Counted from the whole stretch's first letter, positions 17,829 to 56,036 are shown. The stretch is 63,723 nucleotides of DNA, filler included, from 5 parts of 5 records of this genome joined end to end with filler, not necessarily neighbours in it, one strand, 5' to 3'. Numbers and translations are program-made. The notes: generated by a model from the sequence alone, not told the origin.

Positions 17829-17928
17829 NNNNNNNNNNNNNNNNNNNNNNNNNNNNNNNNNNNNNNNNNNNNTTAATTAATTAANNNNNNNNNNNNNNNN
17901 NNNNNNNNNNNNNNNNNNNNNNNNNNNN
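17829..17928. other. Artificial contig spacer
   Basis: N-run, TTAATTAATTAA (stops in all frames), N-run. Confidence 0.99.
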
Positions 17929-17932
17929 CACC

Positions 17933-17958
17933 CTTTCGCGGGCGGGGCCCGCTCCCAC
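17933..17958 (-). repeat. REP-like extragenic palindrome, copy 1
   Basis: Reverse complement is GTGGGAGCGGGCCCCGCCCGCGAAAG, with a GTRG foot and hairpin. Related copies lie at 32390-32415 and 63698-63723. Confidence 0.8.
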
Positions 17959-17983
17959 CAGAACCGCCCACAAAGCAAAAGTG

Positions 17984-18044
17984 TTGACAGAGCTTTCACG
18001 GTTGGGGAACACTGCCGGTTACTACGTACGAACATTCGTTCGTA
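17984..18044 (+). promoter_or_regulatory. Sigma70-like promoter with palindromic operator (putative TetR site)
   Basis: TTGACA at 17984, AACACT at 18008 (weak -10), and a perfect inverted repeat TACGAAC-attc-GTTCGTA at 18027-18044. Confidence 0.65.
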
Positions 18045-18077
18045 ATGCACAAAACAGAATAACAAGGGAGAGCAACC

Positions 18078-20216: not shown

Positions 20217-20257
20217 ACCAAACGATCAGAACCACAACAACAAAACGAGGACGCATC

Positions 20258-21493
20258 ATGAATAAGCCAATAACAACCAGCCTCTTCGCCATCGCCCTGC
20301 TCGCCAGCGCGGTGGCCGGCGCCGCCGACGGCGGCAAACAAAACGCCAAGGGTATCTCCGGCGACACCGTGAAAATCGGCGTGCTGGCGGACATGTCCGG
20401 CATCTTCTCCGACCTGAGCGGCGAAGGCGCGGTCACCGCCGCGCGCATGGCGGTGGACGACTTCGTCGCCGAGCAGAAACCCGGCTTCAAGGTGGAAGTG
20501 GTCACCGCCGACCACCAGAACAAAACCGACGTGGCCGCCAGCCGCGCCCGCGAGTGGTACGACACCGAAGGCGTGGACATGATCACCGACGTGATCAACT
20601 CCGCGGTGGCCCTGGCGGTGTCCGAAGTGACCCGCGACAAGGACCGCGTGCTGATGGTCACCGGCGCCGGGTCCACCACCATCAATAACGAGCAGTGCTC
20701 GCCCAACACCATCCTCTACGCCTGGGACACCTACTCCCTGGCCAACAGCCTGGGCCGCACCATCACCGAGCAGGGCGACGATAGCTGGTACTTCGTGACG
20801 GTGGACTACGCGCTCGGCAAATCCATCGAATACGACGCCACCAAGGCGGTGGAAAACGCCGGCGGTGAAGTGCTCGGCTCCCTGCACCACCCCATGGGCG
20901 CCTCCGACTTCGCCTCCTTCATGCTGCAGGCGCAGAGCTCCGGCGCCGACGTGATCGGCATCGCCAACGCCGGCGGCGACCTGCACAACGCGGTGCGCGT
21001 GGCTAACGAGTTCGGCATCAACCAGTCGCAGAAAATCGTCGGCCTGGCCGCCAGCATGACCGACGTGCACGCACTGGGCCTGGAAGTGACCCAGGGCATG
21101 CTGCTGGTGGAAGGGTTCTACTGGGATCAGGACGACGAAGCGCGCCAGTGGAGCCAACGCTTCAAGGAAAAGACCGGCAAGATGCCCAACATGCTTAACG
21201 CCGCCACCTACTCGGCGGTCACCAACTACCTGAGCGCCGCCAAAGAGCTGGGCACCGACGACGCCGACGCGGTGCTGGCCCACCTGCACGAGCAGGAGAT
21301 CAACGACCTGTTCGCCAAGAACGGCCGCATCCGTCCGGACGGCCAGATGGTCCACGACGTCTATCTCTATGAAGTGAAAAGCCCGAAAGAGTCCGAAGGC
21401 GAGTGGGACTACTACAAGCTGCGCGAAACCGTGCCGGCGGAAAAAGCCTACCAGCCGCTCTCCGAATCACGCTGCCCTTTGGTTAACAGCTAA
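20258..21493 (+). CDS. ABC transporter substrate-binding protein (LivK/HAAT family)
   Basis: Signal peptide; VKIGVLADMSG, ADHQNKTD and DFASFMLQAQSSGA. Confidence 0.93.
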   Translation: MNKPITTSLFAIALLASAVAGAADGGKQNAKGISGDTVKIGVLADMSGIFSDLSGEGAVTAARMAVDDFVAEQKPGFKVEVVTADHQNKTDVAASRAREWYDTEGVDMITDVINSAVALAVSEVTRDKDRVLMVTGAGSTTINNEQCSPNTILYAWDTYSLANSLGRTITEQGDDSWYFVTVDYALGKSIEYDATKAVENAGGEVLGSLHHPMGASDFASFMLQAQSSGADVIGIANAGGDLHNAVRVANEFGINQSQKIVGLAASMTDVHALGLEVTQGMLLVEGFYWDQDDEARQWSQRFKEKTGKMPNMLNAATYSAVTNYLSAAKELGTDDADAVLAHLHEQEINDLFAKNGRIRPDGQMVHDVYLYEVKSPKESEGEWDYYKLRETVPAEKAYQPLSESRCPLVNS

Positions 21494-21519
21494 AAGAACA
21501 GCTAAGGGAGGGGACAGAC

Positions 21520-22293
21520 ATGACGGACGAGGTACTGGGCACCCGGCGGTTGAGCAAACGCTTCAAGGGCTTCACCGCCGTCGACAACGTGGATCTGTCC
21601 GTGAAAAAGGGGCACATCCACGCCCTGATCGGCCCCAACGGGGCCGGCAAGACCACGCTGTTCAACCTGCTCACCCGCTTCACCGAGCCCAGCGCCGGCG
21701 AGATCCACTTCAACGGGCGCTCGGTGTCCGCGCTGCCGCCCCGCGAGGTGGCGCGGCGCGGCATGGTGCGCTCGTTTCAGATCTCCGCGGTGTTCGCCAG
21801 CCTGAGCGTGCTCGACAACGTGCGGCTGGCGCTGCAGCGCGAGCTGGGCATGTCGTTTCACTTCTGGAAAAGCGACCGGGTGCTCAACCGGCTCAACGAC
21901 CGCGCCATGGAACTGCTCGACTCCGTGGGCCTCACCGGCGTCGCCTCACACGCCGCCGGCAGCCTGCCCTACGGCCACAAGCGGGCCCTGGAGCTGGCCA
22001 CCACCCTGGCCATGGATCCGGTGCTGATGCTGCTGGACGAACCCACCCAGGGCATGGGCTACGAGGACGTGGACCGGGTCACCGCGCTGATCCAGCAGGT
22101 GGCCGTCGGCCGCACCGTGCTGATGGTGGAGCACAACATGAAGGTGGTGGCGTCGATCGCCGACACCCTGTCGGTGCTGCAGCGCGGCCGGCTGATCGCC
22201 AGCGGCAGCTACCAGGACGTGTCCACCAACCCCCGGGTGATGGAGGCCTACATGGGCACCGCCCCCGGGCACGGCAAGGAGAGCGTGGCATGA
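21520..22293 (+). CDS. ABC ATP-binding protein (LivG-like)
   Basis: GPNGAGKTT, LLDEP and VEHNM. Confidence 0.94.
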   Translation: MTDEVLGTRRLSKRFKGFTAVDNVDLSVKKGHIHALIGPNGAGKTTLFNLLTRFTEPSAGEIHFNGRSVSALPPREVARRGMVRSFQISAVFASLSVLDNVRLALQRELGMSFHFWKSDRVLNRLNDRAMELLDSVGLTGVASHAAGSLPYGHKRALELATTLAMDPVLMLLDEPTQGMGYEDVDRVTALIQQVAVGRTVLMVEHNMKVVASIADTLSVLQRGRLIASGSYQDVSTNPRVMEAYMGTAPGHGKESVA

Positions 22294-23012
22294 ACACCGC
22301 AACGCAAACAGCGGCCCTGGCGGTGCGTGATCTGCACGCCTGGTACGGCGAGTCCCACGTGCTGCAGGGCGTGAACTTCGACGTTCAGCACGGCGAGGTG
22401 GTCACCCTGCTGGGCCGCAACGGCGCCGGGCGCACCACCACGCTACGGGCCCTGCTCGGCCTCACCGGCCGGCGCAGCGGGTCAATACGGGTGTTCGACG
22501 AGGAAGTAATCGGCACGAGCACGCACCGCATCGCCCGGCTGGGCGTCGGCTACTGCCCGGAAGAGCGGGGGATTTTCGCCAGCCTCAGCTGCGAGGAGAA
22601 CCTGCTGCTGCCGCCGCTGTTCAAGGGCAGCGAAGCGGGGCTCTCGCTGAATGAGGTCTACCGGCTGTTCCCCAACCTGGAAGAGCGCAAGCACAGCCCG
22701 GGTATGGCGTTGTCCGGCGGCGAACAGCAGATGCTCGCCCTGGCGCGCATTCTGCGCACCGGCGCGCGGCTGCTGTTGCTGGATGAGATCTCCGAAGGGC
22801 TGGCGCCGGTGATCGTCGACACCCTCGGCCAGGCGATCCAGGAGCTGCGTCGGCGCGGCTACACCATTCTGCTGGTGGAGCAGAATTTTCATTTTTCGGC
22901 GGCGCTGTCGGACCGGCTGCTGTTCATGGAGAGCGGCCGCATCATCGACACCCTGACCCCGGACCAACTGGACGACAACGCCGACGAAGTGGCGCGCATG
23001 CTCAGCGTCTGA
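22290..23012 (+). CDS. ABC ATP-binding protein (LivF-like)
   Basis: GRNGAGRTT, LSGGEQQM and LLDEISEGLAP. Confidence 0.94.
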   Translation: MNTATQTAALAVRDLHAWYGESHVLQGVNFDVQHGEVVTLLGRNGAGRTTTLRALLGLTGRRSGSIRVFDEEVIGTSTHRIARLGVGYCPEERGIFASLSCEENLLLPPLFKGSEAGLSLNEVYRLFPNLEERKHSPGMALSGGEQQMLALARILRTGARLLLLDEISEGLAPVIVDTLGQAIQELRRRGYTILLVEQNFHFSAALSDRLLFMESGRIIDTLTPDQLDDNADEVARMLSV

Positions 23013-23031
23013 AAACAATAAAGGGAAGGCT

Positions 23032-23913
23032 ATGGATATATTCGGTGTGCCGGTGCAGGCACTCATGGCGCAACTGATGATCGGCCTGGTGAACGGCTGC
23101 TTCTACGCGGTCCTGAGCCTGGGGCTGGCGGTCATCTTCGGCATGCTGCACGTGATCAACTTCACCCACGGCGCCATGTTCATGCTGGGCGCTCTGCTCA
23201 GCTGGGCCGGCCTCTATTACTTCGAGCTCAACTACTGGGTGATGCTGTTCCTGGCGCCGCTGGTGGTGGGCGTGTTCGGCATCGTGCTGGAGCGTTTGTT
23301 TCTGAAACGCATCTACAAGCTCGACTATCTGTACGGCCTGCTGCTGACCCTGGGCCTGACGCTGATCATCGAAGGCGCGGTGCGCTCCGTTTACGGCGTG
23401 TCCGGCAAGCCCTACGGCCCGGCGCCGATCTCCGGCGTCACCGACCTGGGCTTTCTGATGATCCCCAACTACCGGCTGTGGGTGATCGTCGCCTCGCTGC
23501 TGGTGTGCGCCGCCACCTGGTACACCATTGAGCGCACCCGCCTGGGCGCCTACCTGCGCGCCGCCACCGAGAACCCCAAGCTGGTGGAAGCCTTCGGCAT
23601 CAACGTGCCGGTGCTGGTTAGCCTGACCTTCGGCTTCGGCGTCGCCCTGGCGGCGTTCGCCGGGGTGCTGGCCGCGCCGATCATGCAGGTCTCCGCGCTC
23701 ACCGGCCAGACCATGATCGTGATCGTGTTCGCGGTGGTGGTGATCGGCGGCATGGGCTCCATCGCCGGCACCGTGGTCACCGGCATCGGGCTGGGCCTGG
23801 TGGAAGCGCTCACCAAGGTGTACTACCCGGAGGCCTCTTCCATGGTGATGTTCCTGGTCATGGTGCTGGTGTTGCTGGTGCGGCCCAACGGCCTGTTTGG
23901 AGGTAGAGAATGA
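23032..23913 (+). CDS. ABC permease (LivH-like)
   Basis: INFTHG, VVIGGMGS and RPNGLFG; multiple TM helices. Confidence 0.93.
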   Translation: MDIFGVPVQALMAQLMIGLVNGCFYAVLSLGLAVIFGMLHVINFTHGAMFMLGALLSWAGLYYFELNYWVMLFLAPLVVGVFGIVLERLFLKRIYKLDYLYGLLLTLGLTLIIEGAVRSVYGVSGKPYGPAPISGVTDLGFLMIPNYRLWVIVASLLVCAATWYTIERTRLGAYLRAATENPKLVEAFGINVPVLVSLTFGFGVALAAFAGVLAAPIMQVSALTGQTMIVIVFAVVVIGGMGSIAGTVVTGIGLGLVEALTKVYYPEASSMVMFLVMVLVLLVRPNGLFGGRE

Positions 23914-24929
23914 TAAGCGCCCGTTACGATACCGTCCGCCTGGCGTGCTACGGCGCCCTGCTGCTGGCCCTGGTGGTCGCCCCCTGGGTGGGGCTCTATC
24001 CGGTGCTCGGCACCAAGATTTTGTGTTACGCGCTGTTCGCCTGCGCCTTCCATTTGCTGCTCGGCTACACCGGCCTGGCGTCCCTGGGCCACGCTGCGTT
24101 TCTCGGCGTCGGCGGCTATGTGGCCGGCTACGGCATCAAGGCCTGGGCGCTGTCGCCGGAGCTGGCGCTGCTCGCCGGCCTGTCGGTGGGCGCGCTGATG
24201 GGGCTGGTGATGGGCTATGTGTCGATCCGCCGCTCCGGCATCTACTTCACCATGATCACCCTGGCGCTGGCGCAGCTGGTCTATTTCCTGTGCGTGCAGA
24301 TTCCGCAGACCGGCGGCGAGGACGGCCTGCAGGGCATCGACCGGGGCCTGCTGTTCGGCTTCATCGATCTGCACAACGACCGCGTCATGTACTACACCAC
24401 CCTGACCATCGGCGTGGCGGCGTTCCTGTTCATCGCCCGGGTGGTGCGCTCGCCGTTCGGCCAGGCGCTCACCGCGATCAAGGACAACGAGCCGCGCGCG
24501 GTATCGCTGGGCTACCACCCGGACCGCTACAAGCTGCTGGTGTTCACCCTGTCCGCCGCGCTCACCGGCCTGGCCGGCGCGCTCAAGGCCATCGGCCTGG
24601 GCTTCGTGACGCTCTCCGACGTGCACTGGATGACCTCCGGCCACGCCCTGCTGATGACCCTGGTGGGCGGCCTGGGCACCCTGTCCGGCCCGGTGGTCGG
24701 CGCCGTGGTGCTGGTCACCCTGGAGAACAAAATCGGCGAGCTGGGCACGCTGCTCGCCGGCGTCACCGGCATCGGCTGGTTCGCCACCCTCGGCGAGTCG
24801 GTGATGATGATCATGGGCATCGTGTTCGTGATCTGCGTCCTCGCTTTCCGGCGCGGCATCATGGGCGAGCTCGACGCCCTGCGCCGCCGTGTCCGCACCC
24901 CCAACCCGGCACCGGAGCCTCAATCATGA
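23910..24929 (+). CDS. ABC permease (LivM-like)
   Basis: GYTGLASLGHAAF, GIYFTMITLALAQ, TGGEDG and SPFG. Confidence 0.93.
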   Translation: MISARYDTVRLACYGALLLALVVAPWVGLYPVLGTKILCYALFACAFHLLLGYTGLASLGHAAFLGVGGYVAGYGIKAWALSPELALLAGLSVGALMGLVMGYVSIRRSGIYFTMITLALAQLVYFLCVQIPQTGGEDGLQGIDRGLLFGFIDLHNDRVMYYTTLTIGVAAFLFIARVVRSPFGQALTAIKDNEPRAVSLGYHPDRYKLLVFTLSAALTGLAGALKAIGLGFVTLSDVHWMTSGHALLMTLVGGLGTLSGPVVGAVVLVTLENKIGELGTLLAGVTGIGWFATLGESVMMIMGIVFVICVLAFRRGIMGELDALRRRVRTPNPAPEPQS

Positions 24930-26614
24930 CCACCCATACCCCCGACGCGTTTCACCATCACTGGCCGCCGCGGCTGTCCAAGAGCCTGCGGCCGCCGCGC
25001 ACCACCCTGTGGGACAACCTGGTCACCAGCGCGCGGCGCTATCCGGAAAAAACCGCGATCCGCTTCTTCGATCGCGCGCTCAGCTACCGCGAGTTGCTGT
25101 GCCAGTGCGAGACCCTGGCCGCCTGGCTCAGCGGCGCCGGCGTGCGCCCCGGCGACCGGGTGCTGGTGATGATGCAGAACTGCCCGCAACTGGTGATCGC
25201 CCATTACGCGATCATGCGCGCCAACGCGGTGGTGGTGCCGATCAACCCGATGAACAAAGCCTCCGAGCTGGGTCATTACATCCGCGACGCCGGCGCCAAG
25301 GCGGCGATCTGCTCCGCGGAGCTGGCCCGCGAACTGACCGGCGCCAACAACGACCTGCCCCACGACGAACAACTGCAACGGCTGCTGGTGACCCGCTACG
25401 CCGACGCCTTCGACCGCAGCGCCAGCCAGGACCTGCCAGTGCCCGAAGAGTGGAAAGACTGGCTCTACACCTGCAACCTGCCCCTGGACGGACACACGCC
25501 CGTCACCCCCTGGCTGGAGGCGCTGGCCACCACCCTGCCGCCGCCGGTGCTGATCGGCGACCCGGACACGCCCTGCCTGCTGCCCTACACCAGCGGCACC
25601 ACCGGCGCGCCCAAGGGCTGCGTCCACCACCACGGCTCGATCATGCACAACGCCGTGGCAAGCTGGCAGTGGATCAACGGCGACCCGGAAAGCGTGATGC
25701 TGGCGGTGTTGCCGCTGTTTCACATCACCGGCCTGGTGTGCGTGATGCACGGTACGATTTTCGGCGGCGGCACCCTGGTGATTCTGCCGCGCTGGCAGCG
25801 CGACCTGGCCAGCCATCTGATCGAAAAAGAAGGCATCAGTCACTGGCTGTGCATCCCCACCATGGTGGTGGATCTGCTCGCCTCCCCGGACCTGGAACGC
25901 TACGACTTGTCGCGGCTGGCGTTTATCGGCGGCGGCGGCGCGGCCATGCCGGAAGCCGTGGCGGAACGCCTGAAAGAAACCTACGGGCTCGACTTCGTGG
26001 AAGGCTACGGCCTCACCGAAACCTCCGGCCCCACGCACATGAACCCCTGCCACCGGCCCAAACTGCAGTGCCTGGGCATTCCGTTCATGAGCACCGACGT
26101 GAAAGTGCTGGACCCGGACACCCGCGAAGAGTGCGCGGACAACCAGCCCGGCGAAATCGCCATCTGCGGCCCGCAGGTGTTCCAGGGCTACTGGAACAAC
26201 GACGAAGCCACCGCCAAAAGCTTCCTCTACATCGGCGGCCGTAAGTACTTCCTCACCGGGGATCTGGGGCGGCGCGACGGCGACGGCTACTTCTACATCA
26301 CCGACCGCATCAAACGCATGATCAACGCCTCCGGCTTCAAGGTGTGGCCCGCGGAAGTGGAAAACCTGCTGTTCCGCCACCCGGGCATTCAGGAAGCCTG
26401 CGTGGTCGGCAGCCAGGACGCCTACCGGGGCGAAACCGTACGCGCCGTGGTGGTGCGCCGCGCCTCTCAGCCGGGCCTGGACGCCGAGACCCTGATAGAA
26501 TGGTGCCGCGAAAATATGGCCGCGTATAAAGTGCCGAAAATCGTCGACTTCGTGGACGCCCTGCCCAAGAACGGCAGCGGCAAGATCATGTGGCGGGAAG
26601 TACAGGACCTATGA
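24926..26614 (+). CDS. Acyl-CoA synthetase (long-chain/aromatic acid-CoA ligase)
   Basis: YTSGTTGAPKG, EGYGLTE, TGDLG and DRIKRMINASGFKVWPAEVE; start MTTHT overlaps the LivM stop. Confidence 0.94.
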   Translation: MTTHTPDAFHHHWPPRLSKSLRPPRTTLWDNLVTSARRYPEKTAIRFFDRALSYRELLCQCETLAAWLSGAGVRPGDRVLVMMQNCPQLVIAHYAIMRANAVVVPINPMNKASELGHYIRDAGAKAAICSAELARELTGANNDLPHDEQLQRLLVTRYADAFDRSASQDLPVPEEWKDWLYTCNLPLDGHTPVTPWLEALATTLPPPVLIGDPDTPCLLPYTSGTTGAPKGCVHHHGSIMHNAVASWQWINGDPESVMLAVLPLFHITGLVCVMHGTIFGGGTLVILPRWQRDLASHLIEKEGISHWLCIPTMVVDLLASPDLERYDLSRLAFIGGGGAAMPEAVAERLKETYGLDFVEGYGLTETSGPTHMNPCHRPKLQCLGIPFMSTDVKVLDPDTREECADNQPGEIAICGPQVFQGYWNNDEATAKSFLYIGGRKYFLTGDLGRRDGDGYFYITDRIKRMINASGFKVWPAEVENLLFRHPGIQEACVVGSQDAYRGETVRAVVVRRASQPGLDAETLIEWCRENMAAYKVPKIVDFVDALPKNGSGKIMWREVQDL

Positions 26615-27315
26615 GCGAACCGAAAATACGGCGCACCCGCAACGGCGCGCGTCTGCCGGCCGACCAGGCGACACCGCGCTACCTCGGCGAGAACATCGAG
26701 AAGGACCTGCGGGAGGTCAGCGAGCGGACCGGCGGCGGCACCATGCAAAGCCGCATCCTGGTGGCCGCCATCGCCCTGTTCGCCGAACGCGGCTACGAAA
26801 ACCTCAACATGCGCACCCTGGCCGGCTGGGTGGGTCTCAAGGCCCCCACCCTCTACAACTACTACGCCTCCAAGGAGCAGCTGCTGGTCGAAGCCATCGA
26901 GCTGGGCATGACCGACTTCTTCAGCTACATCCTGGAAGGCATCGACGAGGTGCCCCGCGAAGACCGGCTGTTCGAAATCGTGCGCCGGCACGCCGGCTAC
27001 AAAATGCGCCACCGGCTGATCGCCCGCGCCAACGACCGCCTGATCGATCCGCAATTCGCGCGCATGTTCCTCCCCGAGGACACCGCCCGGCACTTCAGCG
27101 GCCGCATGGCCGGCTACCGCCACACCGTCCAGGACCTGGTGCGCGACTACGTCGCCGACGACGCCCCGGTAAGCCCCAAAGTGGTCACCCTGGCCCTGCT
27201 CAGCCAGTGCGACCGCATGGCCTACTGGTACAACCCCAAGGGCCAGATGACGCCCGACCAGGCACTCGAGCAGGTCAGTATTCTGATTCGTCGGATGCTG
27301 GGTACCGCCGCCTGA
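26611..27315 (+). CDS. TetR-family transcriptional regulator
   Basis: ILVAAIALFAERGY...LKAPTLYNYYASKEQLL; ATGA coupling to the ligase gene. Confidence 0.93.
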   Translation: MSEPKIRRTRNGARLPADQATPRYLGENIEKDLREVSERTGGGTMQSRILVAAIALFAERGYENLNMRTLAGWVGLKAPTLYNYYASKEQLLVEAIELGMTDFFSYILEGIDEVPREDRLFEIVRRHAGYKMRHRLIARANDRLIDPQFARMFLPEDTARHFSGRMAGYRHTVQDLVRDYVADDAPVSPKVVTLALLSQCDRMAYWYNPKGQMTPDQALEQVSILIRRMLGTAA

Positions 27316-27326
27316 AGAGGCGGCTG

Positions 27327-27572
27327 CTAGGAGGGGCGGAAGACATCTTCCAGCGTGTCGACTTCGTAGGGACGGTCAATCCAGCCTTCCAGTTCGGTGC
27401 GGGTGGCGCGCTCCAGCCGGGCATCGACCTCAGCGGGCACGTCACCGAAACGGCGCATCAACTGACGGCGCAGGATGGCCCGGGCCTCATTCGTGGAGCC
27501 CTGCTCAAGGCCTTGCTGCAGGCCGGTTTGGTGGTGTTGGTCCTTCCATTCCTGAACAGTGTCTCTAACCAT
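27327..27572 (-). CDS. Putative intragenic small Rpn antitoxin (RpnS-like, 81 aa), in frame with Rpn
   Basis: AGGAG (27586-27582) lies 9 nt before an in-frame ATG (MVRDTVQEW...) just ahead of the C-terminal domain. Confidence 0.6.
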   Translation of the reverse strand: MVRDTVQEWKDQHHQTGLQQGLEQGSTNEARAILRRQLMRRFGDVPAEVDARLERATRTELEGWIDRPYEVDTLEDVFRPS

Positions 27573-28289
27573 GTCATAGGTCTCCTGCAGGTCATGAATC
27601 TCAGGCAAGTTTACGTTGGGTGCCCAGCGACGCAAACGGCGACGCAGCCACTCCACATAATCCCGTCTCAAATCCTCTTGTCCTGGCTCGCTAAGCCAGT
27701 CTATCAAAAGTGCCAGAATGTCAGGCACCTCCGCTAGCGAGCGATGATGCTCCAGCCGAAATAGCGCCGCCACCAGGTTACTCAGCGGCGCCAGCTCGTC
27801 CATGTCGAAGGCGCCTTCATCAATAAGCAAAAGCGCCTGATCCGGCTGAAACTCAGCCAGTGCCTCGGGGCCCGGCTGAATTAAACCCGACACTCGCGTT
27901 GGCGCTCGCCAACGAGCGGCGCCGTTGTACAGCACGATAGGTAACACCGGTGGCAACTTCCGCGAATTATCCAGCTCCTGGCGACGAACCAGGTCCTGAT
28001 AGAGCAAACCGGTATACGTCAGGATGCGCACCGGCATGAACCGATCAACCGTGGACTGGAATTCCAGGAGCAAGTAAATATAAATCCACTCCTGTCCCCA
28101 CCGTACTCGCCAGATGGCGTCATTGTGGCGGCTGCGCAAATCATCGCTGACATAGCTGCCGTTCATCTTTTCCAAAGAGTTGAGGTCCAACTCGGCGATC
28201 CAGCTCTCAGGCACGAATCCCGTCAGCAGGTCCCTGACCATCTCGGCATGAGAGAACAGCAACCGGTAGCTAGTGTCATGGTCATCCAT
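27327..28289 (-). CDS. Rpn/YhgA-family recombination-promoting nuclease with DUF4351-like C-terminus
   Basis: HDTSYRLLFS, DAIWRV, YLLLEFQS (PD-(D/E)xK variant), LPPVLPIVLYNG, and GLQQGLEQG...RQLMRRFG. Confidence 0.9.
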   Translation of the reverse strand: MDDHDTSYRLLFSHAEMVRDLLTGFVPESWIAELDLNSLEKMNGSYVSDDLRSRHNDAIWRVRWGQEWIYIYLLLEFQSTVDRFMPVRILTYTGLLYQDLVRRQELDNSRKLPPVLPIVLYNGAARWRAPTRVSGLIQPGPEALAEFQPDQALLLIDEGAFDMDELAPLSNLVAALFRLEHHRSLAEVPDILALLIDWLSEPGQEDLRRDYVEWLRRRLRRWAPNVNLPEIHDLQETYDMVRDTVQEWKDQHHQTGLQQGLEQGSTNEARAILRRQLMRRFGDVPAEVDARLERATRTELEGWIDRPYEVDTLEDVFRPS

Positions 28290-28436
28290 ACTTCCCTCCA
28301 AAAGTGTGAAAGAAAGTATGGCGAGCCAAGGCCGATCAGGTTGTACGTCAAAACCTCAATCTATGTCAGCGAAGCGTGCGCCGTTTCGAAGGATAAGGGA
28401 TATTACGGAACTCAAGAACCGATTAAGCTGCTTGAG

Positions 28437-28808
28437 CTATTCTTTAAACTGCCGGGGCCGCCGAAGCTGGCGCACCTCGCGCTCGATGGATTCGCGCTGC
28501 CCCTGCCTGAGCCCAAATAGAGGATTCGCGGTAACGAACTGAACGTCGACGCGACTACCCAGCGCTCGTGCCGCCCGCGATAGAGTATCGATGGTCATTC
28601 CTTCATCGCGTTCATCCAGCAATCTCGCCACAGCCGCCCGACTTGTGTTCATCCGCTGCGCCAAGTCACTCCGGGTCATCTTCACCTGACCCATCCGTTC
28701 CTTAATTTGCCAGGTTATGACGCGTTTTATAGCGGCTGCGGAACAGTCTTCCAGGGTGTCTTCTGCTTCCAGAAAGTCATCAAAACTGGATCCAACATGC
28801 TTATTCAT
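28437..28808 (-). CDS. XRE/HigA-like antitoxin (orphan, C-terminally extended)
   Basis: MNKHVGSSFDDFL...AIKRVITWQI...LAQRMNTSRAAVARLLD...TIDTLSRAARALG. Confidence 0.85.
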   Translation of the reverse strand: MNKHVGSSFDDFLEAEDTLEDCSAAAIKRVITWQIKERMGQVKMTRSDLAQRMNTSRAAVARLLDERDEGMTIDTLSRAARALGSRVDVQFVTANPLFGLRQGQRESIEREVRQLRRPRQFKE

Positions 28809-28851
28809 AGCGTTTCACCTTCTTCAGCCGACGGGCTAGGAGCCGTGTTAT

Positions 28852-28869
28852 TGTACCAATTGTGGTACA
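28852..28869 (-). promoter_or_regulatory. Palindromic TA operator overlapping a TACAAT -10 box
   Basis: TGTACCA-attg-TGGTACA; on the minus strand the downstream arm runs into TACAAT. Confidence 0.6.
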
Positions 28870-28928
28870 GCGCACAATCCTTGCTTACTGTCAGGGGTCC
28901 GGTGGGTGCGAGATTGATTTTCGCCCTT

Positions 28929-28950
28929 GTGGTGCCCATATTGGCACCAC
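28929..28950 (+). promoter_or_regulatory. Palindromic operator upstream of the DUF1778 remnant
   Basis: GTGGTGCC-catatt-GGCACCAC perfect inverted repeat. Confidence 0.5.
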
Positions 28951-28972
28951 ACTCCATATGAAGAGGTGTCGC

Positions 28973-29152
28973 ATGATGACGGCAGCGACTGAGGTCGCCG
29001 AGCGAACCACACGGATCAATGCAAACCGCAGCGCCTTCGAGAACATGATGACGGCCCTGGACCAGCCGGCTCGCGAACTGCCCCGCCTGAAGCGGGCCGC
29101 ACAACACTACAAGGACGTGGTGCATGACTCGGATCCGAAAGCAGCCACTTAG
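28973..29152 (+). pseudogene. N-terminally truncated DUF1778 (TacA/AtaR-like) antitoxin
   Basis: AATEVAERTTRINANRSAFENMMTALDQPARELPRLKRAAQHY resembles the C-terminal half of DUF1778; the RHH part is missing. Confidence 0.6.
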
Positions 29153-29209
29153 CAAGCAACACGACCGGGCCGCTTTGACTGCGGGTCGCGGAACTCAACT
29201 CATTTCTCA
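29124..29209 (+). pseudogene. Frameshifted 5' remnant of a GNAT (TacT/AtaT-like) toxin
   Basis: MTRIRKQPLSKQHDRA, then restoring two 1-nt deletions gives (A)FDCG(V)AELNSFL. It is cut off by the convergent O-antigen ligase gene. Confidence 0.6.
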
Positions 29210-30417
29210 TGGACGCGTAGCAGGCACCAGCAGGCGGTGATCAGGCCCAGGTAGCCGGCCAGGCCGCGGGCATCGCGGAGCATGGACTGGGTGAGGCCGA
29301 AGCCGATAAAGGCGACCACCACCACCAGGCCGGCGACCGCCAGGACCCGGGTGGTGGCGTCAGGGCGGCCACGCAGGGCGCGGGCGAACAACAGCAGCGG
29401 CACGCCGTACAGCATCAGCAAGGAGCCCAGGCCCACCAGGCCCCGGCGGGCAGCGGTGTCGATCAGGTCGCTGTGAAGCTGGTCGTGGAGGCTGACCGCC
29501 GGGTGCAGATCCCAGGCCGCCACCCAGTCGTCACGCCTTTCCTGCAGCCGCCCTTCCCCCCAACCGAACAACGGCTTCTCGGAAAACAGCTGCACGCCGA
29601 CGCGCCACATCTCCACCCGCACGCCGAAGGAGTTGCCCCGCTCACCCTCGTCGTATTGATCCACGCTCTCCAGCGCCTGGCCGACCCGCTCGGTCACCGC
29701 CACCGTGGGCGACAACGACGCCAACAGCAGCAGGCCCAGCAGCGCCGTCACACCGATGCCCAGCACCGGGCGCGGCAGCGTGCGCCAGAAGCCCAGGCCC
29801 ACCACGACCACCAGCGCCGGGAACACCACCCAGCTGCCCCGGGTACCGGACAGCAGCGACGCCCCCAGACCGAACGCCAGCGCCAACAATAACCCGGCCC
29901 GCGCCCAGTCGGAACGCACCGCGAACACCCCGACCCAGGCCAGGGCGCCGAGCAATAAAGAGAGCATGCCGAAAGGAATGGGATTGATACCGTTGCCGGC
30001 GCGCACATCGCCCACCATCCAGACTTCCCAGCCCGCAATCAGCCCGGCCAACAACGCGCCGACGCCAACACCCCACCAGAGCGCCGCGACCGGCGGCCGC
30101 AGGCGCCGCCAGCCCAGCCACACAAAGGCCGCCAGCAAGGCCCAAAGCGGCAACCAAAGCCCGCCCCGCTCAATGGCCCGGGGCCAGACCCCGGTGCGTG
30201 CCACATCCGCCAGCCAGATCAAAGAGAACACCGCCAGGGCGACCAGAAACCAGATGTCCTCGCGGCTCAGCGGCGTCACCGGCCGGCGCCGCGTAGCGAA
30301 AGCCACCAACGCCAGGGCAGCGGCCGCCAGCGGCACCACGGCGTAAGCCAAAGGCCAGGCAACAAGCAAAGACAGGAAAGCGGCCAGAACAAGTCCGGCC
30401 AGGGAAGAAGAGATCAT
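29200..30417 (-). CDS. O-antigen ligase (Wzy_C/WaaL) family membrane protein
   Basis: Many TM helices; NPIPFG, LLSGTRGSW, SFGVRVEMW..G...KPLFGWG and LHSDLID..ARRGLVG. Confidence 0.9.
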   Translation of the reverse strand: MISSSLAGLVLAAFLSLLVAWPLAYAVVPLAAAALALVAFATRRRPVTPLSREDIWFLVALAVFSLIWLADVARTGVWPRAIERGGLWLPLWALLAAFVWLGWRRLRPPVAALWWGVGVGALLAGLIAGWEVWMVGDVRAGNGINPIPFGMLSLLLGALAWVGVFAVRSDWARAGLLLALAFGLGASLLSGTRGSWVVFPALVVVVGLGFWRTLPRPVLGIGVTALLGLLLLASLSPTVAVTERVGQALESVDQYDEGERGNSFGVRVEMWRVGVQLFSEKPLFGWGEGRLQERRDDWVAAWDLHPAVSLHDQLHSDLIDTAARRGLVGLGSLLMLYGVPLLLFARALRGRPDATTRVLAVAGLVVVVAFIGFGLTQSMLRDARGLAGYLGLITACWCLLRVHEK

Positions 30418-30454
30418 GGTGGTAGGAGACGCCTAAGCCGCAAAGGTTCCAGCC

Positions 30455-30595
30455 CTAAGAATCGCTCTGCGGCTCCCCATCATTGGTACTAACTTCTGTG
30501 GGTCTGGCGGCGTAACCTGCTTTCATTTCGCGCACGGCATGAAGCAGCTTTTCTCCCAGCTCTTCACCCGTAATATCATCTTTGGTCTTACCCAT
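30455..30595 (-). pseudogene. Truncated HigA/YiaG-like antitoxin N-terminus, preceded by a toxin C-terminal remnant
   Basis: GEELGEKLLHAVREMKAGYAARPTEV with the HTH lost. The overlapping upstream frame ends KAIREELEHG*, like a RelE/HigB tail. Confidence 0.5.
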
Positions 30596-30730
30596 GCTCC
30601 AACTCCTCGCGGATCGCTTTTGGCAATCACCTGACCGGCTTAGGGATGTGCGGCTATCCAAACACAAAACTAAGCGCTATTCGCCTCTACGTTGGCCTGA
30701 AGTGCTGCAGGTTTTGAAGTGGATCCTCGC

Positions 30731-31228
30731 TCACGCGGCTTCGTCGACGCCTCCAGTGCTCAATTTGCGACCCAGAAGACGCTCCAGAATAGCCACCTCT
30801 TCGTCACTAAACCTGTCGCGAACTTTCATGAGCAGATTAATAACCCGCTCTTTGCCATCCTCCGACAGCCAATCATCAAGGTTAAGGTGGGCCAGGTTCA
30901 GCCAGCCTTGGGGAAGGCGCAACATCACCATATCCGCCGCCGCACGGGCATGTGAGGCCACATACACCGGCCCTTGCACATCTTCACCCAAACGCGCGAT
31001 AGCTGCCGAAGCATCAATGATGCCGTCATTCCCGAAGTAGTCGAGCGCGTCAAATTCGGTGCTCTCGCCGGCCAGACACAACGAAATCCGGACACCGCGC
31101 TTCAGAGCGCGCAGCGTCTCCATGGTGTGCCAATCGCCGGAATCGGGCGAGGTAGGCAAGTTCAGTGCAACGATACCGCTGATATAACGGCGAGGTGTCG
31201 TTTCACTCCAAATCTTCAGCGAAGTCAT
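30731..31228 (-). CDS. Hypothetical protein (possibly type IV TA antitoxin-like)
   Basis: Intact 165-aa ORF with RYISGIVALNLP...GDWH and VASHARAAAD. The family assignment is from recall only. Confidence 0.6.
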   Translation of the reverse strand: MTSLKIWSETTPRRYISGIVALNLPTSPDSGDWHTMETLRALKRGVRISLCLAGESTEFDALDYFGNDGIIDASAAIARLGEDVQGPVYVASHARAAADMVMLRLPQGWLNLAHLNLDDWLSEDGKERVINLLMKVRDRFSDEEVAILERLLGRKLSTGGVDEAA

Positions 31229-31371
31229 GATGAAACCCGCAGGAACAGTGCATGGCTAATAATTGATCAAATAATAGCGTCCGCTCAAAAGGTCTGCAAC
31301 CAGGACTCAGCAGGCTGAATTATCTATAACGCGCTGATAATAAAGTACTTATTAATTTAAAAGGTCAGCCG

Positions 31372-31402
31372 TGGGTGCCGGGCGGCAGGCCGCTCTTTCG
31401 CG
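31372..31402 (+). repeat. 31-bp direct repeat, left copy (REP-derived)
   Basis: TGGGTGCCGGGCGGCAGGCCGCTCTTTCGCG; 30/31 identical to 32367-32397. Confidence 0.85.
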
Positions 31403-31403
31403 C

Positions 31404-32195
31404 TCAAGCACGCCCCTTGGATGGTTTGGCACAGACGGAGCGTAAGCCATCAATGTGTTCGAAAAGATCTGGACGGATTGTCGCCCACATAGCATCCAGG
31501 ACGAAGTCGATACCTTCCCTACGAGCAAGTTTTGCCGCGGGCACAAAATCGGCATCGCCGGACACCAAAACAATCTGGTTGACCTGCTGCTTATATGCCA
31601 AAGAAGCAATATCGAGCCCCAGGCGCATGTCGACGCCCTTCTGCCGCAGATCAAGATTAAAGTCTTCGTCGTTAATATCGCTCCACTTTTTTCGCCCCGA
31701 TGTGAGTTCCTTTAGAACACGGGGTCTCACCTGCCAATTGACATGATTCGTCGGTATTTCCCCCATTCGGAGCGCCACTTTGCGGTGACCGCGTAGCTTT
31801 TCGTGGAATTCGTTTCTCCATTTCGCTATCTCAGTCTTGGAGAAGTCGACAGAATCCTTCTTGAGCGGAGTGTGCCCTTTCCAACTCGCTGGCGGAGCGT
31901 CATAGACGAAGATTCTATACAGCCTCGAAGTTCTTCTTCCGCTGGAATCGTTCAGGTGATCAAGAGCGAGATGGAGCACTTTTTCTGCGGCCAGCTCGGG
32001 GGAGAGCGAACCGAAGATGGCACGGGCACGCTTCAAGAAGAAGCCAGCATCCACCATAACCGCAGTAACGGTAGGAGTGACATGCCTGAGAAGATCGGAT
32101 TTTCTGCCGCCCTGAAAAGAGTTGCCCCCGGGTTCGGCATTCTCTGGATCATTGAGAGAAGACTTACTGCCGGGGGCGGATGATGCTTTAACCAT
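31404..32195 (-). CDS. NYN (PIN-like, LabA/DUF88-type) ribonuclease domain protein; start codon uncertain
   Basis: VMVDAGFFLKR, LYRIFVYDAPP, LRQKGVDMRLGLDIASL and LVSGDADFVPAAKLARREG. Confidence 0.88.
   Translation of the reverse strand: MVKASSAPGSKSSLNDPENAEPGGNSFQGGRKSDLLRHVTPTVTAVMVDAGFFLKRARAIFGSLSPELAAEKVLHLALDHLNDSSGRRTSRLYRIFVYDAPPASWKGHTPLKKDSVDFSKTEIAKWRNEFHEKLRGHRKVALRMGEIPTNHVNWQVRPRVLKELTSGRKKWSDINDEDFNLDLRQKGVDMRLGLDIASLAYKQQVNQIVLVSGDADFVPAAKLARREGIDFVLDAMWATIRPDLFEHIDGLRSVCAKPSKGRA
32124..32177 (-). ncRNA. Putative structured leader or antitoxin RNA upstream of the NYN domain
   Basis: Outer stem GCCCCCGG/CCGGGGGC, internal loop, inner stem TTCTCT/AGAGAA; it lies just downstream of a predicted promoter. 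Confidence 0.5.
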
Positions 32196-32219
32196 AGTCA
32201 AAACCTTTTTCTTATTCAA
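32191..32219 (-). promoter_or_regulatory. Sigma70-like promoter for the hairpin-NYN transcript
   Basis: Minus strand TTGAAT-17 nt-TATGGT. Confidence 0.55.
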
Positions 32220-32366
32220 TATTCTCCGGGAACATTTTTGTAACGCCTGGCTTGGCGGTGGAATGGCCAGCATGGCAGGTCTTGCCCGACTAAACTGTCG
32301 GCCAGAACGTCAATCGTTGTCAGCGAACAGCTATTTTTCTGAGGGAGGGCTTTCACGCTGAGGTGC

Positions 32367-32415
32367 TGGGTGCCGGGCGGCAGGCCGCCCTTTCGCGGGC
32401 TGGGCCCGCTCCCAC
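32367..32415 (+). repeat. 31-bp direct repeat, right copy, running into REP copy 2
   Basis: TGGGTGCCGGGCGGCAGGCCGCCCTTTCGCG followed by GGCTGGGCCCGCTCCCAC at the contig end. Confidence 0.85.
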
Positions 32416-32515
32416 NNNNNNNNNNNNNNNNNNNNNNNNNNNNNNNNNNNNNNNNNNNNTTAATTAATTAANNNNNNNNNNNNNNNNNNNNNNNNNNNNN
32501 NNNNNNNNNNNNNNN
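32416..32515. other. Artificial contig spacer
   Basis: N-run, TTAATTAATTAA, N-run. Confidence 0.99.
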
Positions 32516-33322
32516 AACCGTGGTGTCTATGCGTGATTGAATGTTCACCTGCTCAGCGACGCTAGCGAAAGCGGATCGAAAAGCCGTGTTGGCATCGTCT
32601 TGCTTCATTTTCTCTGCGATATCTGGAATCAGCGCCGGTATAGAGCAGTATACATGCATTCTGAAGTCATTTTAATTTCATACTTCCGACGTATGTATAC
32701 GAGAGGCAAAAAAAGAAAACGGTGGGCAGCACTACAGGAGACACACAGAACATACTACATGCGCTATTCACCTACACGGCTCCGCCGCGACAGGCTGCAC
32801 ACGCGCTCAGCTTAACGACATGCCGCAGCGCACGGCACAGTGCCCCACCGTCGAGAAGGACGGATGCGAGCGTTTCCTCGCTTAGCTTCTTTGAATCACC
32901 ACAAATACTAATTTCGCACAATGTATCCCGAATATATCACTGTTGAAATGGAAGACGCGGGAGCGTAGTTTTACACACCTGGCTTGGGCTCCGAAGCCTT
33001 CTTAGCTGCCCGAGCAGCGGCAGCAGCCGGGCGAGCAACGCGGGAAGAGCGCCCACCCATTCTTCAAAACGCGCACGAGAGTGCGGCCGGTACTCACAAC
33101 TCACGTTACGCGCCTAAAACGTATCAAACCAAACCCACACAAATGGCGCGCGTGCGTGCAAAAATATCCCCGCAGCAGTCAACGAATCGGACCCGCGCCT
33201 CTTACACGATACAACGTGTTCGGACAGCGCGTGCGCAGCGACAAGGATCCCGTGCATAAACATCGTATGGTGGCTATGCAAAAGTGGGTACTGTATTTAT
33301 TTCATTCTAGCGTTACATGAGT

Positions 33323-36300
33323 CTATCCCTCACCCGAGACTAAGGACCTAACCCAACTCAAGCACGGCACGGCGTGGCAAGCTTGGCGCCACGCGGCAGA
33401 GGCCGCACGGCTGCCGGCGTGTGCACATTCCCCGGCGGCACCAAGTGGGGCGGAGGATCTACATGCATAGCACCGCCAACGCACGCAAGACATTGCGTAA
33501 GCAACCTGGTCCACAAGAAACGCCGCCGGCGAGTCGGTCCCGCTGCACAGCGCGCATCGTTCTCCCAAGCAGAATCTGGAAGAAGAAGAAGAAAAGGGCA
33601 TGGCAATGCTGAACAGCAAATGGTTTGAGACCGTATCCTTTCCTGCATACTGTTCGCACCTTGCGTTGGAGATAATGGCATCATCGGCTGCACTGCATTG
33701 CGCACCGGAGGTACCTCCATTGCGGGAGGGCACGGCGTCCGCATCCTGGGTGGCAGCGGCGTTGGCGACCGCGGCTCATCTCTCCCAGACGCTGCAGCGC
33801 GCAAGCGCAGCGCAGCACTGCACCGGGTACACAAGCGTCCGCAGCGCGCGTGAGGATATCATCGCATTAATTGCGAATGCAGATGCAGCAGAACAGAAAT
33901 ACACGTGCAACTGATTTCCGATACACAGAGTGCCGCCGTGTACCCCGCTTTCACCAATCCGGCAAGCCCGCAGCCTCGACCTGCAGAGGCTCAGGGAGCC
34001 ATAGAACGCACCTGCTGCCCAACCGGCGGCGGACCTCGCGAACAAACACACCACCCCCGGCCGAAAGAGAGCGTCTCCGGTCGATAACAACACGGCCTGT
34101 AGAGCAATAAGTAGAAATAAAATCATAATACACGTCAGTTCTGCCAAACAAGCATGGAATACGATCTTTTCCGCCTCCGCCTCCAGGGACGAAAACCAAA
34201 ACAAATCCTCCCGCAGTGGCACAGCGCACGAGCTCTCTCAGCGACTTTGCGTCCACTCTGGTACGCAGATGGTACCGGATTCTCCATGCAGCTGCGGATT
34301 TCGAGCAAGACAACAAATCACACCACTCGCGCATAACACGCCAACTATGGTCGAATGCAAAATTTTTCTCAGCATGGGGCATATTATTGCGGCGTACGAG
34401 CTACACATACCTCCGCGTCCGATTCGACCATGACCGTGAAAAATGAAGCCGCTGTAGCGCGAATCCTGCGTAAAGAGTCCTTGGAATGCATCCGACGCAT
34501 CATCTACCCGAGGCAGCCTGGACAAAAGACAATACCGGAACCGTACGACAACTTGTCAGAGAACATAGCGATGTATTCCAGCACAGCGTTAGGAACCCAA
34601 GAGCAAAAAAAAAAAAAAAAAAGGATCCATGTGGAACAGACGGTGTTCTGGTGCAGCGGAAACGAACGGGTCGAGCGCATCGCGTTCCCAATTCGCAACA
34701 ACGTACTCAACAGACCGGATACGGCCGAGTGGCTCCGCCGAGCGCTGCGCATCTCCCTCCTCTTCGTCACGCCCTGTACTTCGTGGAGGTGCTACGCGAG
34801 CTCTGAACTCGCAGTTGCTACTCGAGAGATGGAATGGCTTCACCTTGGCACCCGCAATGCCAGCACGGAGCGGATGATACGGCGCAGGCACCACGCGCTG
34901 CGGAGGAACAGGCACGCACTGCTGTTCCACACTGCCCGACGGTGACATCCGCACCTGAGCACAACGTCCACCACAGCCCCCGGATACAAAAAAAAGAATA
35001 GATGGAAAATGGGGGGGCGCCCTTGTCAGGCAACACACGATCACAAAGCTCCAACGCTATACACTGATTAGCGATAGTATCTATGCTGAACAACTCGCAC
35101 TGCAATTGAGTCCACCTCCTTTTGCACCGCAGCCGCACAACGCGGTCGCTTGAAGCGCACCCTGAGCATATGCGGAGCGTCGCTTCGCGGCGGCGCGATC
35201 ACACTTGTCGAGGCAGTCTCGTTGGCGACGATGTTCAGGTGCACGTTGAGCAGCTCTCGCTTCAGCACGTCGCGACGCCGCACAATCTCCACCAAATCCC
35301 GCGCCCTGTACAGAACCATTGAGACCGAACGATGCGATCCCCTCAGAAAAAAGTTGCTACGCCCCCCCCCCTACACCCGCAAGTGGCAGCGATACCGAGG
35401 CCGGCGCCCTATGGCAAAGCCGGGTGGATTCCCTTCGCCTCGCCACTCCCACGCAGTGCCTCGCGGCCGGAACGGGCAGCAGTGGACGTGTCGTTGAAGA
35501 TCGTTTCTCCAACATACAAGATCAACCCAGATAGAGACATAATGATTTCCAGTTGTCGCTTACGACATTCGCATTGCAGGGCAACAGAACATACAGCGCG
35601 CAAAAGCGAAGCTCGCTACAGTGCACCATAGGCGTATCGAGAAGCAATGGGCACGCGAAACACTCGCATCGCGCCGCTACGCAACAGCACACTATACTCG
35701 CTCGGCGCGGCCGCATACCTATCCAGCGAAATCCGGATTTCGCGCAGTTTATCGATTGCAGCCTGCGTCCGTTTTCGAGCGCTAGCATCGTCCTGCACCG
35801 CAAGCATTCGAAGCGCGCAGGGAGTGGATTCGTGGTCATGCGGGAGCAGCAGGGGTTGCGGCGCGCGGGCCCGGCAGCGCAAACGGAAAAGCGATGCACA
35901 AAGAGGAGCGCGGCCCACACACACACCACATACAAAGTGATACCAAACCATTCGCTGGTAACGGATGCTAATTTTACAGAAGCGTCCCCGCTGCCCACAA
36001 AAAAAATAGCATATCGCACCTCGGCTCGTAGGCGAAAGATGACTCGCGGATCTTGATTCTGCGGATCAGGGGGTACCCGGTACTGCCGGTACAGCGGTTC
36101 ATCGCATCGTTCGCGTTTCTCCATCCAATACGTCGCGACCTTTTTTGTCGCAACGCGAGCCGGCCCATATACAGATCATGACACAAATACAGAGCGATAG
36201 TTTATGAAATCAGCACGTCACTACTATGAATGGATGAAAGGATGTGGTGCGAGCCGCATCGCGTCCCTATCGGTAGAACTTTGCATCATCGCAGCGGGTC

Positions 36301-43002: not shown

Positions 43003-43102
43003 NNNNNNNNNNNNNNNNNNNNNNNNNNNNNNNNNNNNNNNNNNNNTTAATTAATTAANNNNNNNNNNNNNNNNNNNNNNNNNNNNNNNNNNNNNNNNNN
43101 NN
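43003..43102. other. Artificial contig spacer
   Basis: N-run, TTAATTAATTAA, N-run. Confidence 0.99.
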
Positions 43103-55936: not shown

Positions 55937-56036
55937 NNNNNNNNNNNNNNNNNNNNNNNNNNNNNNNNNNNNNNNNNNNNTTAATTAATTAANNNNNNNN
56001 NNNNNNNNNNNNNNNNNNNNNNNNNNNNNNNNNNNN
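55937..56036. other. Artificial contig spacer
   Basis: N-run, TTAATTAATTAA, N-run. Confidence 0.99.

Follow-up and report, generated by a model that had tools for sequence, protein, structure and literature searches.

A covarying hairpin RNA tied to a family of lone NYN ribonuclease genes and, in one proteobacterial clade, apparently read as part of the protein

Here, we describe a locus in a 63,723-nt stretch of DNA (hereafter the window) at which a gene for a NYN-domain ribonuclease (RNase) carries a 54-nt hairpin close to its 5' end. The hairpin is a specific, covarying structured RNA that is physically tied to a family of lone NYN RNase genes, and in the clade to which the window belongs it appears, judging from its frame, to be translated as part of the protein. 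The locus is found where the second contig of the window (17929-32415) ends, and its main features, given in coordinates of the whole window and all on the minus strand, are the following:

31404..32195, minus strand: NYN-domain RNase gene, 263 aa (open reading frame, ORF; Pfam NYN; frame test; predicted fold)
32193..32195 and 31404..31406, minus strand: start codon ATG and stop codon TGA of the NYN gene
32124..32177, minus strand: 54-nt hairpin, the window copy of the NYN-associated RNA motif (fold; 58.1 bits, E 1.8e-14 with the covariance model R1 described below)
32170..32177, minus strand: 5' arm of the outer stem (P1), GCCCCCGG, with compensatory changes at 8/8 P1 pairs among 67 sequences
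32165..32168, minus strand: AGUA, internal loop, 5' strand of a sarcin-ricin-type motif, with G, U and A each at least 90% conserved in the alignment A2 described below
32140..32163, minus strand: inner stem (P2) and 9-nt terminal loop, GU/GC followed by UUCUCU/AGAGAA, the loop holding a conserved AU (fold; covariation)
32133..32135, minus strand: GAA, 3' strand of the internal loop, inside a conserved CCGA(A/G)C whose C, C, G and A reach at least 90% conservation in A2
32124..32131, minus strand: 3' arm of P1, CCGGGGGC (fold and alignment covariation)
32114..32121, minus strand: U-rich tail after P1, CUCUUUUC, weaker than the U6-U9 runs of most relatives

The gene encodes a lone NYN RNase with intact acidic motifs, as the original prediction made from the sequence alone had stated. 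Searches of Pfam, NCBIfam and PADLOC match it to NYN only (PF01936, 37.3 bits, E 4.9e-9, cut-off 24.2), and six aspartates (D75, D125, D215, D221, D240 and D242) are invariant across 23 aligned homologues; in a wider set of 46 sequences of greater diversity, they are invariant or conserved to at least 90%. An AlphaFold model based on a 46-sequence alignment (predicted local distance difference test, pLDDT, 88.1) has a NYN-like fold, for which Foldseek returned the LabA-like protein 2qip (template modelling score, TM, 0.64) and the Marf1 NYN domain 5yaa_C (TM 0.62) as the closest solved structures. Residues 1-28 of the model are predicted to be disordered (pLDDT below 50), and the residues encoded by the hairpin belong to this N-terminal extension. 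The family is large, with 7656 of 8000 scored candidates at E<=0.001 and 1699 representative clusters at E<=1e-3, and most of its representatives start near residue ~70 of the window protein. The gene is accessory; there was no NYN match in the nearest genome, none of the three nearest genomes had a DNA match to the 5.7 kb surrounding NYN, and NYN was found in one of the 101 genomes of the nearest genome's family. The R1 model had no match in the same 101 genomes at E<=1e-5 with stricter filters, which indicates rarity there only.

Refolding of the hairpin reproduced exactly the predicted shape, with an 8-bp outer stem, an asymmetric internal loop and a 6-bp inner stem, the latter preceded by two further pairs. 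The 54 nt fold with -23.3 kcal/mol (z = -2.99), and one of 200 shuffles folded equally well. The comparative evidence comes from alignment A2, a plain MAFFT alignment of 67 hairpins including that of the window, which were cut from the DNA ahead of the first beta-strand of the protein. Across P1 and the first two pairs of P2, 93.0% of the alignment cells are paired (78.7% in shuffles), and compensatory changes occur at 10/10 pairs (111 cells), a result matched by 0/500 shuffles. Slid registers reach at most 63% pairing, and RNAalifold returns the same 10 pairs. Within P2, covariation is seen for pairs 19-56 and 20-55 with MAFFT and for the remaining pairs on a model-fitted alignment, in which 15/15 pairs of the hairpin covary but which itself leans towards structure. 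G-U pairs are tolerated in the stems, which indicates an RNA of the sense strand.

The family consensus consists of a P1 of 8-9 bp, the 5' loop strand CAGUA(A/C)G, a P2 of 5-7 bp closed by a small loop with a conserved AU, the 3' loop strand (G)CCGA(A/G)C, the second arm of P1 and a U-run. The consensus tail is TTTTTTTTT, with about nine T, where the window has AACUCUUUUC. Most relatives show the terminator-type form of stem and U-run; a simple terminator scan is blind to the window hairpin because it is limited to loops of 3-8 nt. To judge by its nucleotides, the internal loop carries the AGUA/GAA signature of the sarcin-ricin (bulged-G) motif, which is a typical protein-docking module.

For the distribution of the motif, the covariance model R1, seeded with 66 genomic loci and the window, was applied to the best 80 of at least 595 genomic loci and to 80 of at least 504 viral contigs. 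The motif was found directly upstream of NYN and on the strand of the gene in the window and in 78/80 genomic loci, twelve of them outside the seed (L001, L017, L019, L029, L035-L038, L042, L045, L048 and L071), as well as in 76/80 IMG/VR viral contigs, none of which was in the seed. This gives a combined linkage to the NYN family in 154/160 loci, and R1 was also positive in phage phiE202, prophage Javan85 and a Xanthomonas conjugative plasmid. Thus, the conserved and covarying hairpin that the original prediction would expect upstream of homologues is there. The loci come from Proteobacteria, Verrucomicrobia, Planctomycetes, Acidobacteria, Firmicutes, Spirochaetes, Bacteroidetes and others. 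Whole genomes hold one full-length copy (4/5) or two (1/5), all at the NYN gene, and the 63.7-kb window holds a single one. Conservation, covariation, copy number and a fixed position and strand beside NYN are direct observations, as are the in-frame state in the window's clade and the mobile or defence context described below, and the hairpin is an old, widespread RNA element that travels with the NYN RNase family. A dispersed palindromic repeat, of the repetitive extragenic palindrome (REP) or miniature inverted-repeat transposable element (MITE) kind, was considered and excluded, with few copies per genome and all of them at NYN.

A simpler account would be that of a plain insulating terminator, or of a 5' hairpin that stabilises the mRNA, riding with the gene and engaged in no specific dialogue with NYN. 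The GC-rich stem followed by a U-run fits this, cargo genes of mobile elements are often insulated, and two diverged copies, in phage ev099 and in G104, keep stem and U-run and lose the internal loop. We nevertheless consider it quite unlikely, as the near-invariant unpaired GUA, CCGA and loop AU across phyla are unlike ordinary terminators, and as the element is bound to one gene family in nearly all loci.

Two loci, L079 and L143, hold a second copy of the motif (4933-4995 and 3933-3995, respectively; 51.1 bits) after NYN and 18 nt before a tyrosine integrase gene, while the copy ahead of NYN is degraded (27.8 bits). The second copy might be left over from recombination at the element or from a NYN copy that has since been lost. 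A related idea is that the motif acts at the level of DNA, as a recombination or self-immunity site similar to aba of BstA, or else that it is a small-molecule riboswitch with the terminator stem as its aptamer. Its size and terminator-embedded design resemble those of small riboswitches, BstA loci bear a nucleic-acid self-immunity element in the 5' part of the gene, and the second copy stands right before an integrase gene. Still, the sarcin-ricin loop is a rigid docking motif and not a known ligand pocket, fixed strand and position together with the tolerated G-U pairs favour RNA, and no genome apart from L079 and L143 has copies at element ends, as an attachment site would. We regard these possibilities as very unlikely.

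Rfam gave no match to any family at gathering threshold anywhere in the window, and the window copy stayed without a match in 3 kb searched at E<=1 and in 151 nt searched at E<=10. A Firmicute-type relative (L032) aligns across all 60 positions of the family RF03535, TEG147, with 46.9 bits, which is below the gathering score of 56.1, and two further loci match more weakly (L024, 27.4 bits; L040, 32.1 bits); RF03535 had no match in 14 control genomes. L032, and through A2 the window copy, share with TEG147 the 9-bp P1, the AGUAG/CGAAA internal loop, a short P2, a CAUA-type loop and the U-run, whereas TEG147 is a staphylococcal RNA of unassigned function and the window copy sits inside a reading frame. 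In the accessible text of the respective papers, Teg147 (sRNA85 / srn_0960) is described as a 60-nt 'bona fide sRNA' (small RNA) of Staphylococcus aureus HG003 with unusually high GC (PMC5826253), located in a genomic island (PMC3053349) and made an Rfam family during a curation course (PMC7779021), and its internal loop is scored as sarcin-ricin by JAR3D with 100% acceptance (PMC13085918). Since TEG147 is reported as a discrete sRNA of 60 nt, the hairpin is able to end a transcript. The same accessible text states no function for Teg147 and no link to NYN genes, other phyla, phages or plasmids, and our literature searches returned no described NYN-linked RNA motif and no NYN protein as a type III toxin; what they did return were the Teg147 papers and the NYN candidate HEC-09 discussed below. 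We conclude that the module is a much wider, NYN-linked form of TEG147 RNA, embedded here in coding sequence. In this way, an orphan Rfam family gains a partner gene, a range far beyond staphylococci and a testable function.

The relation of the hairpin to the reading frame was analysed separately for the clade formed by the window and L001-L013 (n = 14) and for 54 loci outside it. Loci outside the clade have the hairpin in their 5' leader. There, its phase relative to the ORF takes all three values (14, 17 and 23 of the 54 loci), in-frame stops separate it from the gene in 39/54, and the canonical start is found 3-4 codons before strand beta-1, and for these reasons the motif is an RNA and not a peptide. 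Within the clade, we observe the hairpin in phase 0 in 14/14 loci, with no stops and with a spacing to beta-1 of 78 to 105 nt that varies by multiples of three. No canonical start follows the hairpin in 6/14 of these loci, and a Shine-Dalgarno sequence and ATG lie ~18 nt before P1. Because it is in frame in every clade locus, free of stops and placed behind Shine-Dalgarno and ATG, we read the clade hairpin as translated into the protein, and the earlier suggestion that it is probably untranslated is not borne out. Compared with the other lineages, the start codon has shifted upstream in the proteobacterial clade of the window, turning the hairpin into an N-terminal extension.

Codons that face each other across the stem change together in the clade (Pro CCC/Gly GGG, Leu CTT/Lys AAG, Ser TCT/Arg AGA, Pro CCA/Trp TGG); the RNA structure appears to be under selection inside the frame, with the peptide as its passenger. 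The converse, that an N-terminal peptide (MxxxSSAPGSK...AEPRGNSF) is the conserved entity and the RNA fold a by-product, can point to a peptide that looks conserved in 20/23 aligned proteins and to the frame kept throughout the clade. It is highly improbable, as loci outside the clade carry the same nucleotides in any of the three frames and in untranslated leaders, as radical residue changes track the pairing (P/L/S facing G/K/R/W, as in CTT/AAG and TCT/AGA), and as the segment is predicted to be disordered. The clade thereby offers a natural example of overlapping RNA and protein constraints in which pairing dictates the amino-acid changes, and a caution for gene callers and for readings of 'conserved N-terminal peptides'.

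At its longest, the NYN ORF of the window spans 31404..32273 on the minus strand, and its contig terminates at 32415, 142 nt upstream of the ATG of this ORF. That ATG (32273) is absent even from the 99%-identical L001, and the Met encoded by ATG 32195 is the start shared with homologues of 98-62% identity. Two features lie around this start:

32204..32210, minus strand: Shine-Dalgarno-like AAAAAGG, weak, ending 8 nt before ATG 32195
32191..32219, minus strand: previously proposed promoter, TTGAAT (32214-32219) and TATGGT (32191-32196), with 8/12 consensus matches

Strong Shine-Dalgarno sequences occupy the equivalent place in the clade relatives L002, L003, L006, L007, L009, L012 and L013. The proposed promoter TTGAAT-17-TATGGT is present as written, yet it is doubtful because it matches the consensus at 8/12 positions, goes unreported by a promoter scan (0 promoter-like sites in 31200-32415) and has the conserved start codon within its TATGGT; it is probably not an operative promoter. 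Contigs assembled from RNA libraries span NYN, the hairpin and the sequence upstream of the proposed promoter (run X14, 31422-32325; X17, 32120-32292; X15, 31875-32227), but as they may contain DNA and carry no ends or strand, they are a weak hint only, also for the promoter question.

Among 104 distinct non-clade upstream sequences, an A is found ~5 nt before P1 in 84%, in a loose UUAUC context, and may either mark where transcription starts or belong to the motif. A TANNNT ending 11-14 nt before P1 occurs in 35 cases among the same sequences, a weak enrichment and not a mapped promoter. In phage ev099, a promoter-like TTGACG-17-TAGATT stands just upstream of the hairpin.

The surroundings of the NYN genes are variable, with 119 of 137 neighbouring ORFs being singletons, and we found no conserved protein partner. 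In L004, NYN separates hsdS from hsdR, while in L003 and L012 it follows hsdS, and in these three loci the hsdS stop is 0-20 nt before the NYN ATG. The neighbour is a MmeI/Eco57I-type methylase in L010 and a Schlafen/AlbA_2 protein in L006, and tyrosine or serine recombinases adjoin NYN in seven Firmicute loci. In the lambdoid phage ev099, NYN stands between a cI-like repressor and N, which is the rexAB position, in Javan85 between repressor and integrase, and in phiE202 beside an integrase and a toxin-antitoxin (TA) pair. Of the plasmid records, 166 contain a homologue (129 of these conjugative), as do 65 phage records. The NYN family thus resides in defence islands and mobile elements.

In the window, an AbiEi-like ORF of 165 aa (30731-31228, minus strand; PADLOC E 3.3e-27; no Pfam or NCBIfam family) lies 176 nt downstream of NYN and is followed by a 70-aa ORF (30455-30667, minus strand), with no AbiEii toxin gene near it. 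Contigs from runs X14 and X15 join 31422 to 30452 via 67 other letters, and because they bypass the pair, the AbiEi-like and 70-aa ORFs are strain-variable. As a candidate protein antitoxin the AbiEi-like ORF was rejected, since it recurs only in the near-identical L001 among 91 loci and is skipped in the two runs. The earlier statement that the cassette holds no protein antitoxin gene therefore stands with regard to a conserved partner and has to be amended for this ORF, which is close by and unlinked to NYN.

We lean, slightly, towards the hairpin being a cis element that restrains expression of a potentially toxic RNase borne on mobile elements, by attenuation or autoregulation. The loop is of a docking type, the stem at the head of the message resembles a terminator, the linkage to one RNase family is strict, and the gene lives in homes that need it silent; this suggests an RNA dedicated to a single protein, for which cis control is the most economical account. 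The order in most lineages is presumed promoter, hairpin, U-run, Shine-Dalgarno and ATG, and the hairpin would terminate or stall the bulk of transcripts. It would probably be bound or cut by NYN itself, which would so exert negative feedback on its own mRNA. In the clade, a ribosome starting at ATG 32195, 18 nt before the stem, would open the stem, so that translation would compete with hairpin formation; translation through the hairpin would then set the amount of full-length NYN, and bound protein could block elongation. Termination at the U-run, binding or cleavage by NYN and the regulatory outcome are steps that we infer by analogy. RNase E (the hp2 hairpin of the Escherichia coli rne 5' untranslated region), RNase III (the rnc leader) and mammalian Regnase-1 limit themselves via hairpins in their own mRNAs. 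They share with the present case a structured hairpin heading the message of the RNase itself, and theirs is the mechanism that we hold likeliest here, while the RNase families are others and the NYN hairpin is terminator-like, mobile and, in the clade, coding.

The hairpin may instead act in trans, as an RNA antitoxin or inhibitor comparable to those of type III systems. Excess hairpin RNA would silence NYN and would decay once transcription stops, for example upon phage infection, leading to abortive infection or addiction. In its order, hairpin followed by terminator-like U-run and RNase gene, the module recalls toxI-terminator-toxN, no conserved protein partner was found, there is one copy of the element per genome beside NYN, and prophage lysogeny modules, plasmids and restriction operons form a fitting context. 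Further, the accessible text on TEG147 presents it as a discrete 60-nt sRNA (PMC5826253). On the other hand, there is no tandem repeat array, the fold is that of NYN and not of ToxN, CptN or TenpN, and toxicity of NYN is presumed only. An excess of sRNA would also be harder to obtain in the clade, where the hairpin is translated and, with the hsdS stop of L003, L004 and L012 immediately ahead of the ATG, lacks the space for its own promoter. All in all, we consider a role in trans unlikely, though with a real chance of being right.

Type III TA systems (ToxIN, CptIN, TenpIN) do share with the NYN module a structured RNA directly upstream of an RNase gene, with a terminator that the hairpin and U-run of most NYN relatives resemble in form, the lack of a protein antitoxin, and a link to mobile elements and phage defence. 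They differ in that their tandem repeats are processed by the toxin, where here a single hairpin is paired with a NYN fold. Tandem Repeats Finder (TRF) reported 0 tandem-repeat arrays with a score >=30 in 31200-32415, and because there is neither such an array nor a ToxN-type toxin, the NYN module is not a type III TA member. The original prediction of a type III-like RNA antitoxin is hence upheld in a structured RNA tied to NYN, the missing protein partner, the defence and mobile context and the Firmicute relative of a 60-nt sRNA (as given in the accessible text of PMC5826253), and fails on the repeat array, the toxin fold and the position inside the frame.

A bolder and rather speculative version, which we think improbable, is that hairpin RNA and NYN together constitute a new class of two-part RNA-protein module for TA or abortive infection, which phages, plasmids and restriction islands would have carried into most bacterial phyla. 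If so, a single sarcin-ricin-loop hairpin would serve as decoy or antitoxin, possibly mimicking the ribosomal sarcin-ricin loop or the target of the RNase, and would silence the RNase until infection or loss of the element. The clade version would then be an antitoxin RNA housed within the reading frame of its own toxin.

Two further defence systems offer parallels of location. PrrC of the prr (type Ic hsd) locus is a latent RNase whose gene lies between hsdS and hsdR, as does NYN in L004, with NYN after hsdS in L003 and L012. PrrC differs in being an anticodon nuclease of ABC-ATPase type that is silenced by the restriction complex, we know of no RNA element associated with it, and the window copy of NYN is outside an hsd operon. 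The lysogeny-module defence systems RexAB and BstA are matched by the rexAB position in ev099 and the repressor-integrase gap in Javan85; their proteins are unrelated, and a defence role of the NYN family is only a candidate one.

Several points weigh against cis control as set out above. The fold of the hairpin with its flanks (91 nt) is weak as a single sequence (z = -1.14, 22/200 shuffles equally good), for which reason the support for the hairpin is comparative. Pair 9-64 is unpaired in 15/67 sequences, and several clade members have one P1 mismatch. R1 found no hairpin in L068 and L069 of the 80 genomic loci, and the hairpins of phage ev099 (L092, 2417-2480) and of G104 (L098, 2194-2261) have the same length and place and a U-run, without the AGUA/GAA loop; these four loci imply that the loop is not indispensable. 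In the window, the U-run CUCUUUUC is weak and located inside the ORF, and a translated terminator implies costly non-stop transcripts. The mechanism is drawn by analogy, and TEG147 as an independent sRNA fits a role in trans at least as well as one in cis. Finally, according to the accessible part of a preprint, HEC-09, a NYN protein embedded in Hma defence loci and not necessarily of the same NYN family, gave no phage defence when tested (bioRxiv 10.1101/2024.01.29.577857). The numerous lone NYN RNases of the family, with relatives in at least 504 viral contigs, become candidates for regulated toxins or for defence genes.

The window as a whole consists of five contigs joined by artificial linkers of 44 N, TTAATTAATTAA and 44 N (17829-17928, 32416-32515, 43003-43102 and 55937-56036), and features are therefore not readable across the joints. 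In the first 3.5 kb of the contig that follows the NYN locus (32516-36000, 47-59% GC), no ORF >200 aa was listed in any frame and no Rfam family matched. On the other side, the NYN neighbourhood is an accessory, strain-variable surface-polysaccharide region. It includes a Rpn/YhgA-like recombination-promoting nuclease (27327-28301, minus strand; Transposase_31, E 3.9e-30), an adjoining Xre/HigA-like helix-turn-helix protein (28437-28808, minus strand) and, next to this pair, an O-antigen-ligase-like gene (29200-30417). Two repeats bracket NYN and its hairpin:

31372..31402, no strand assigned: 31-nt direct repeat just past the NYN stop, partner of 32367-32397
32367..32397, no strand assigned: second 31-nt direct repeat, on the upstream side of NYN and abutting the REP-like palindrome with which the contig ends (repeat search)

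The two copies are 97% identical and 995 nt apart, and the window holds no third one. Contig depth at 32372-32415 is very high (hundreds to thousands) in all four runs, and the REP-like palindrome (32384-32415) is on this account a highly repeated element. The flanking 31-nt repeats may mark a small inserted cassette.

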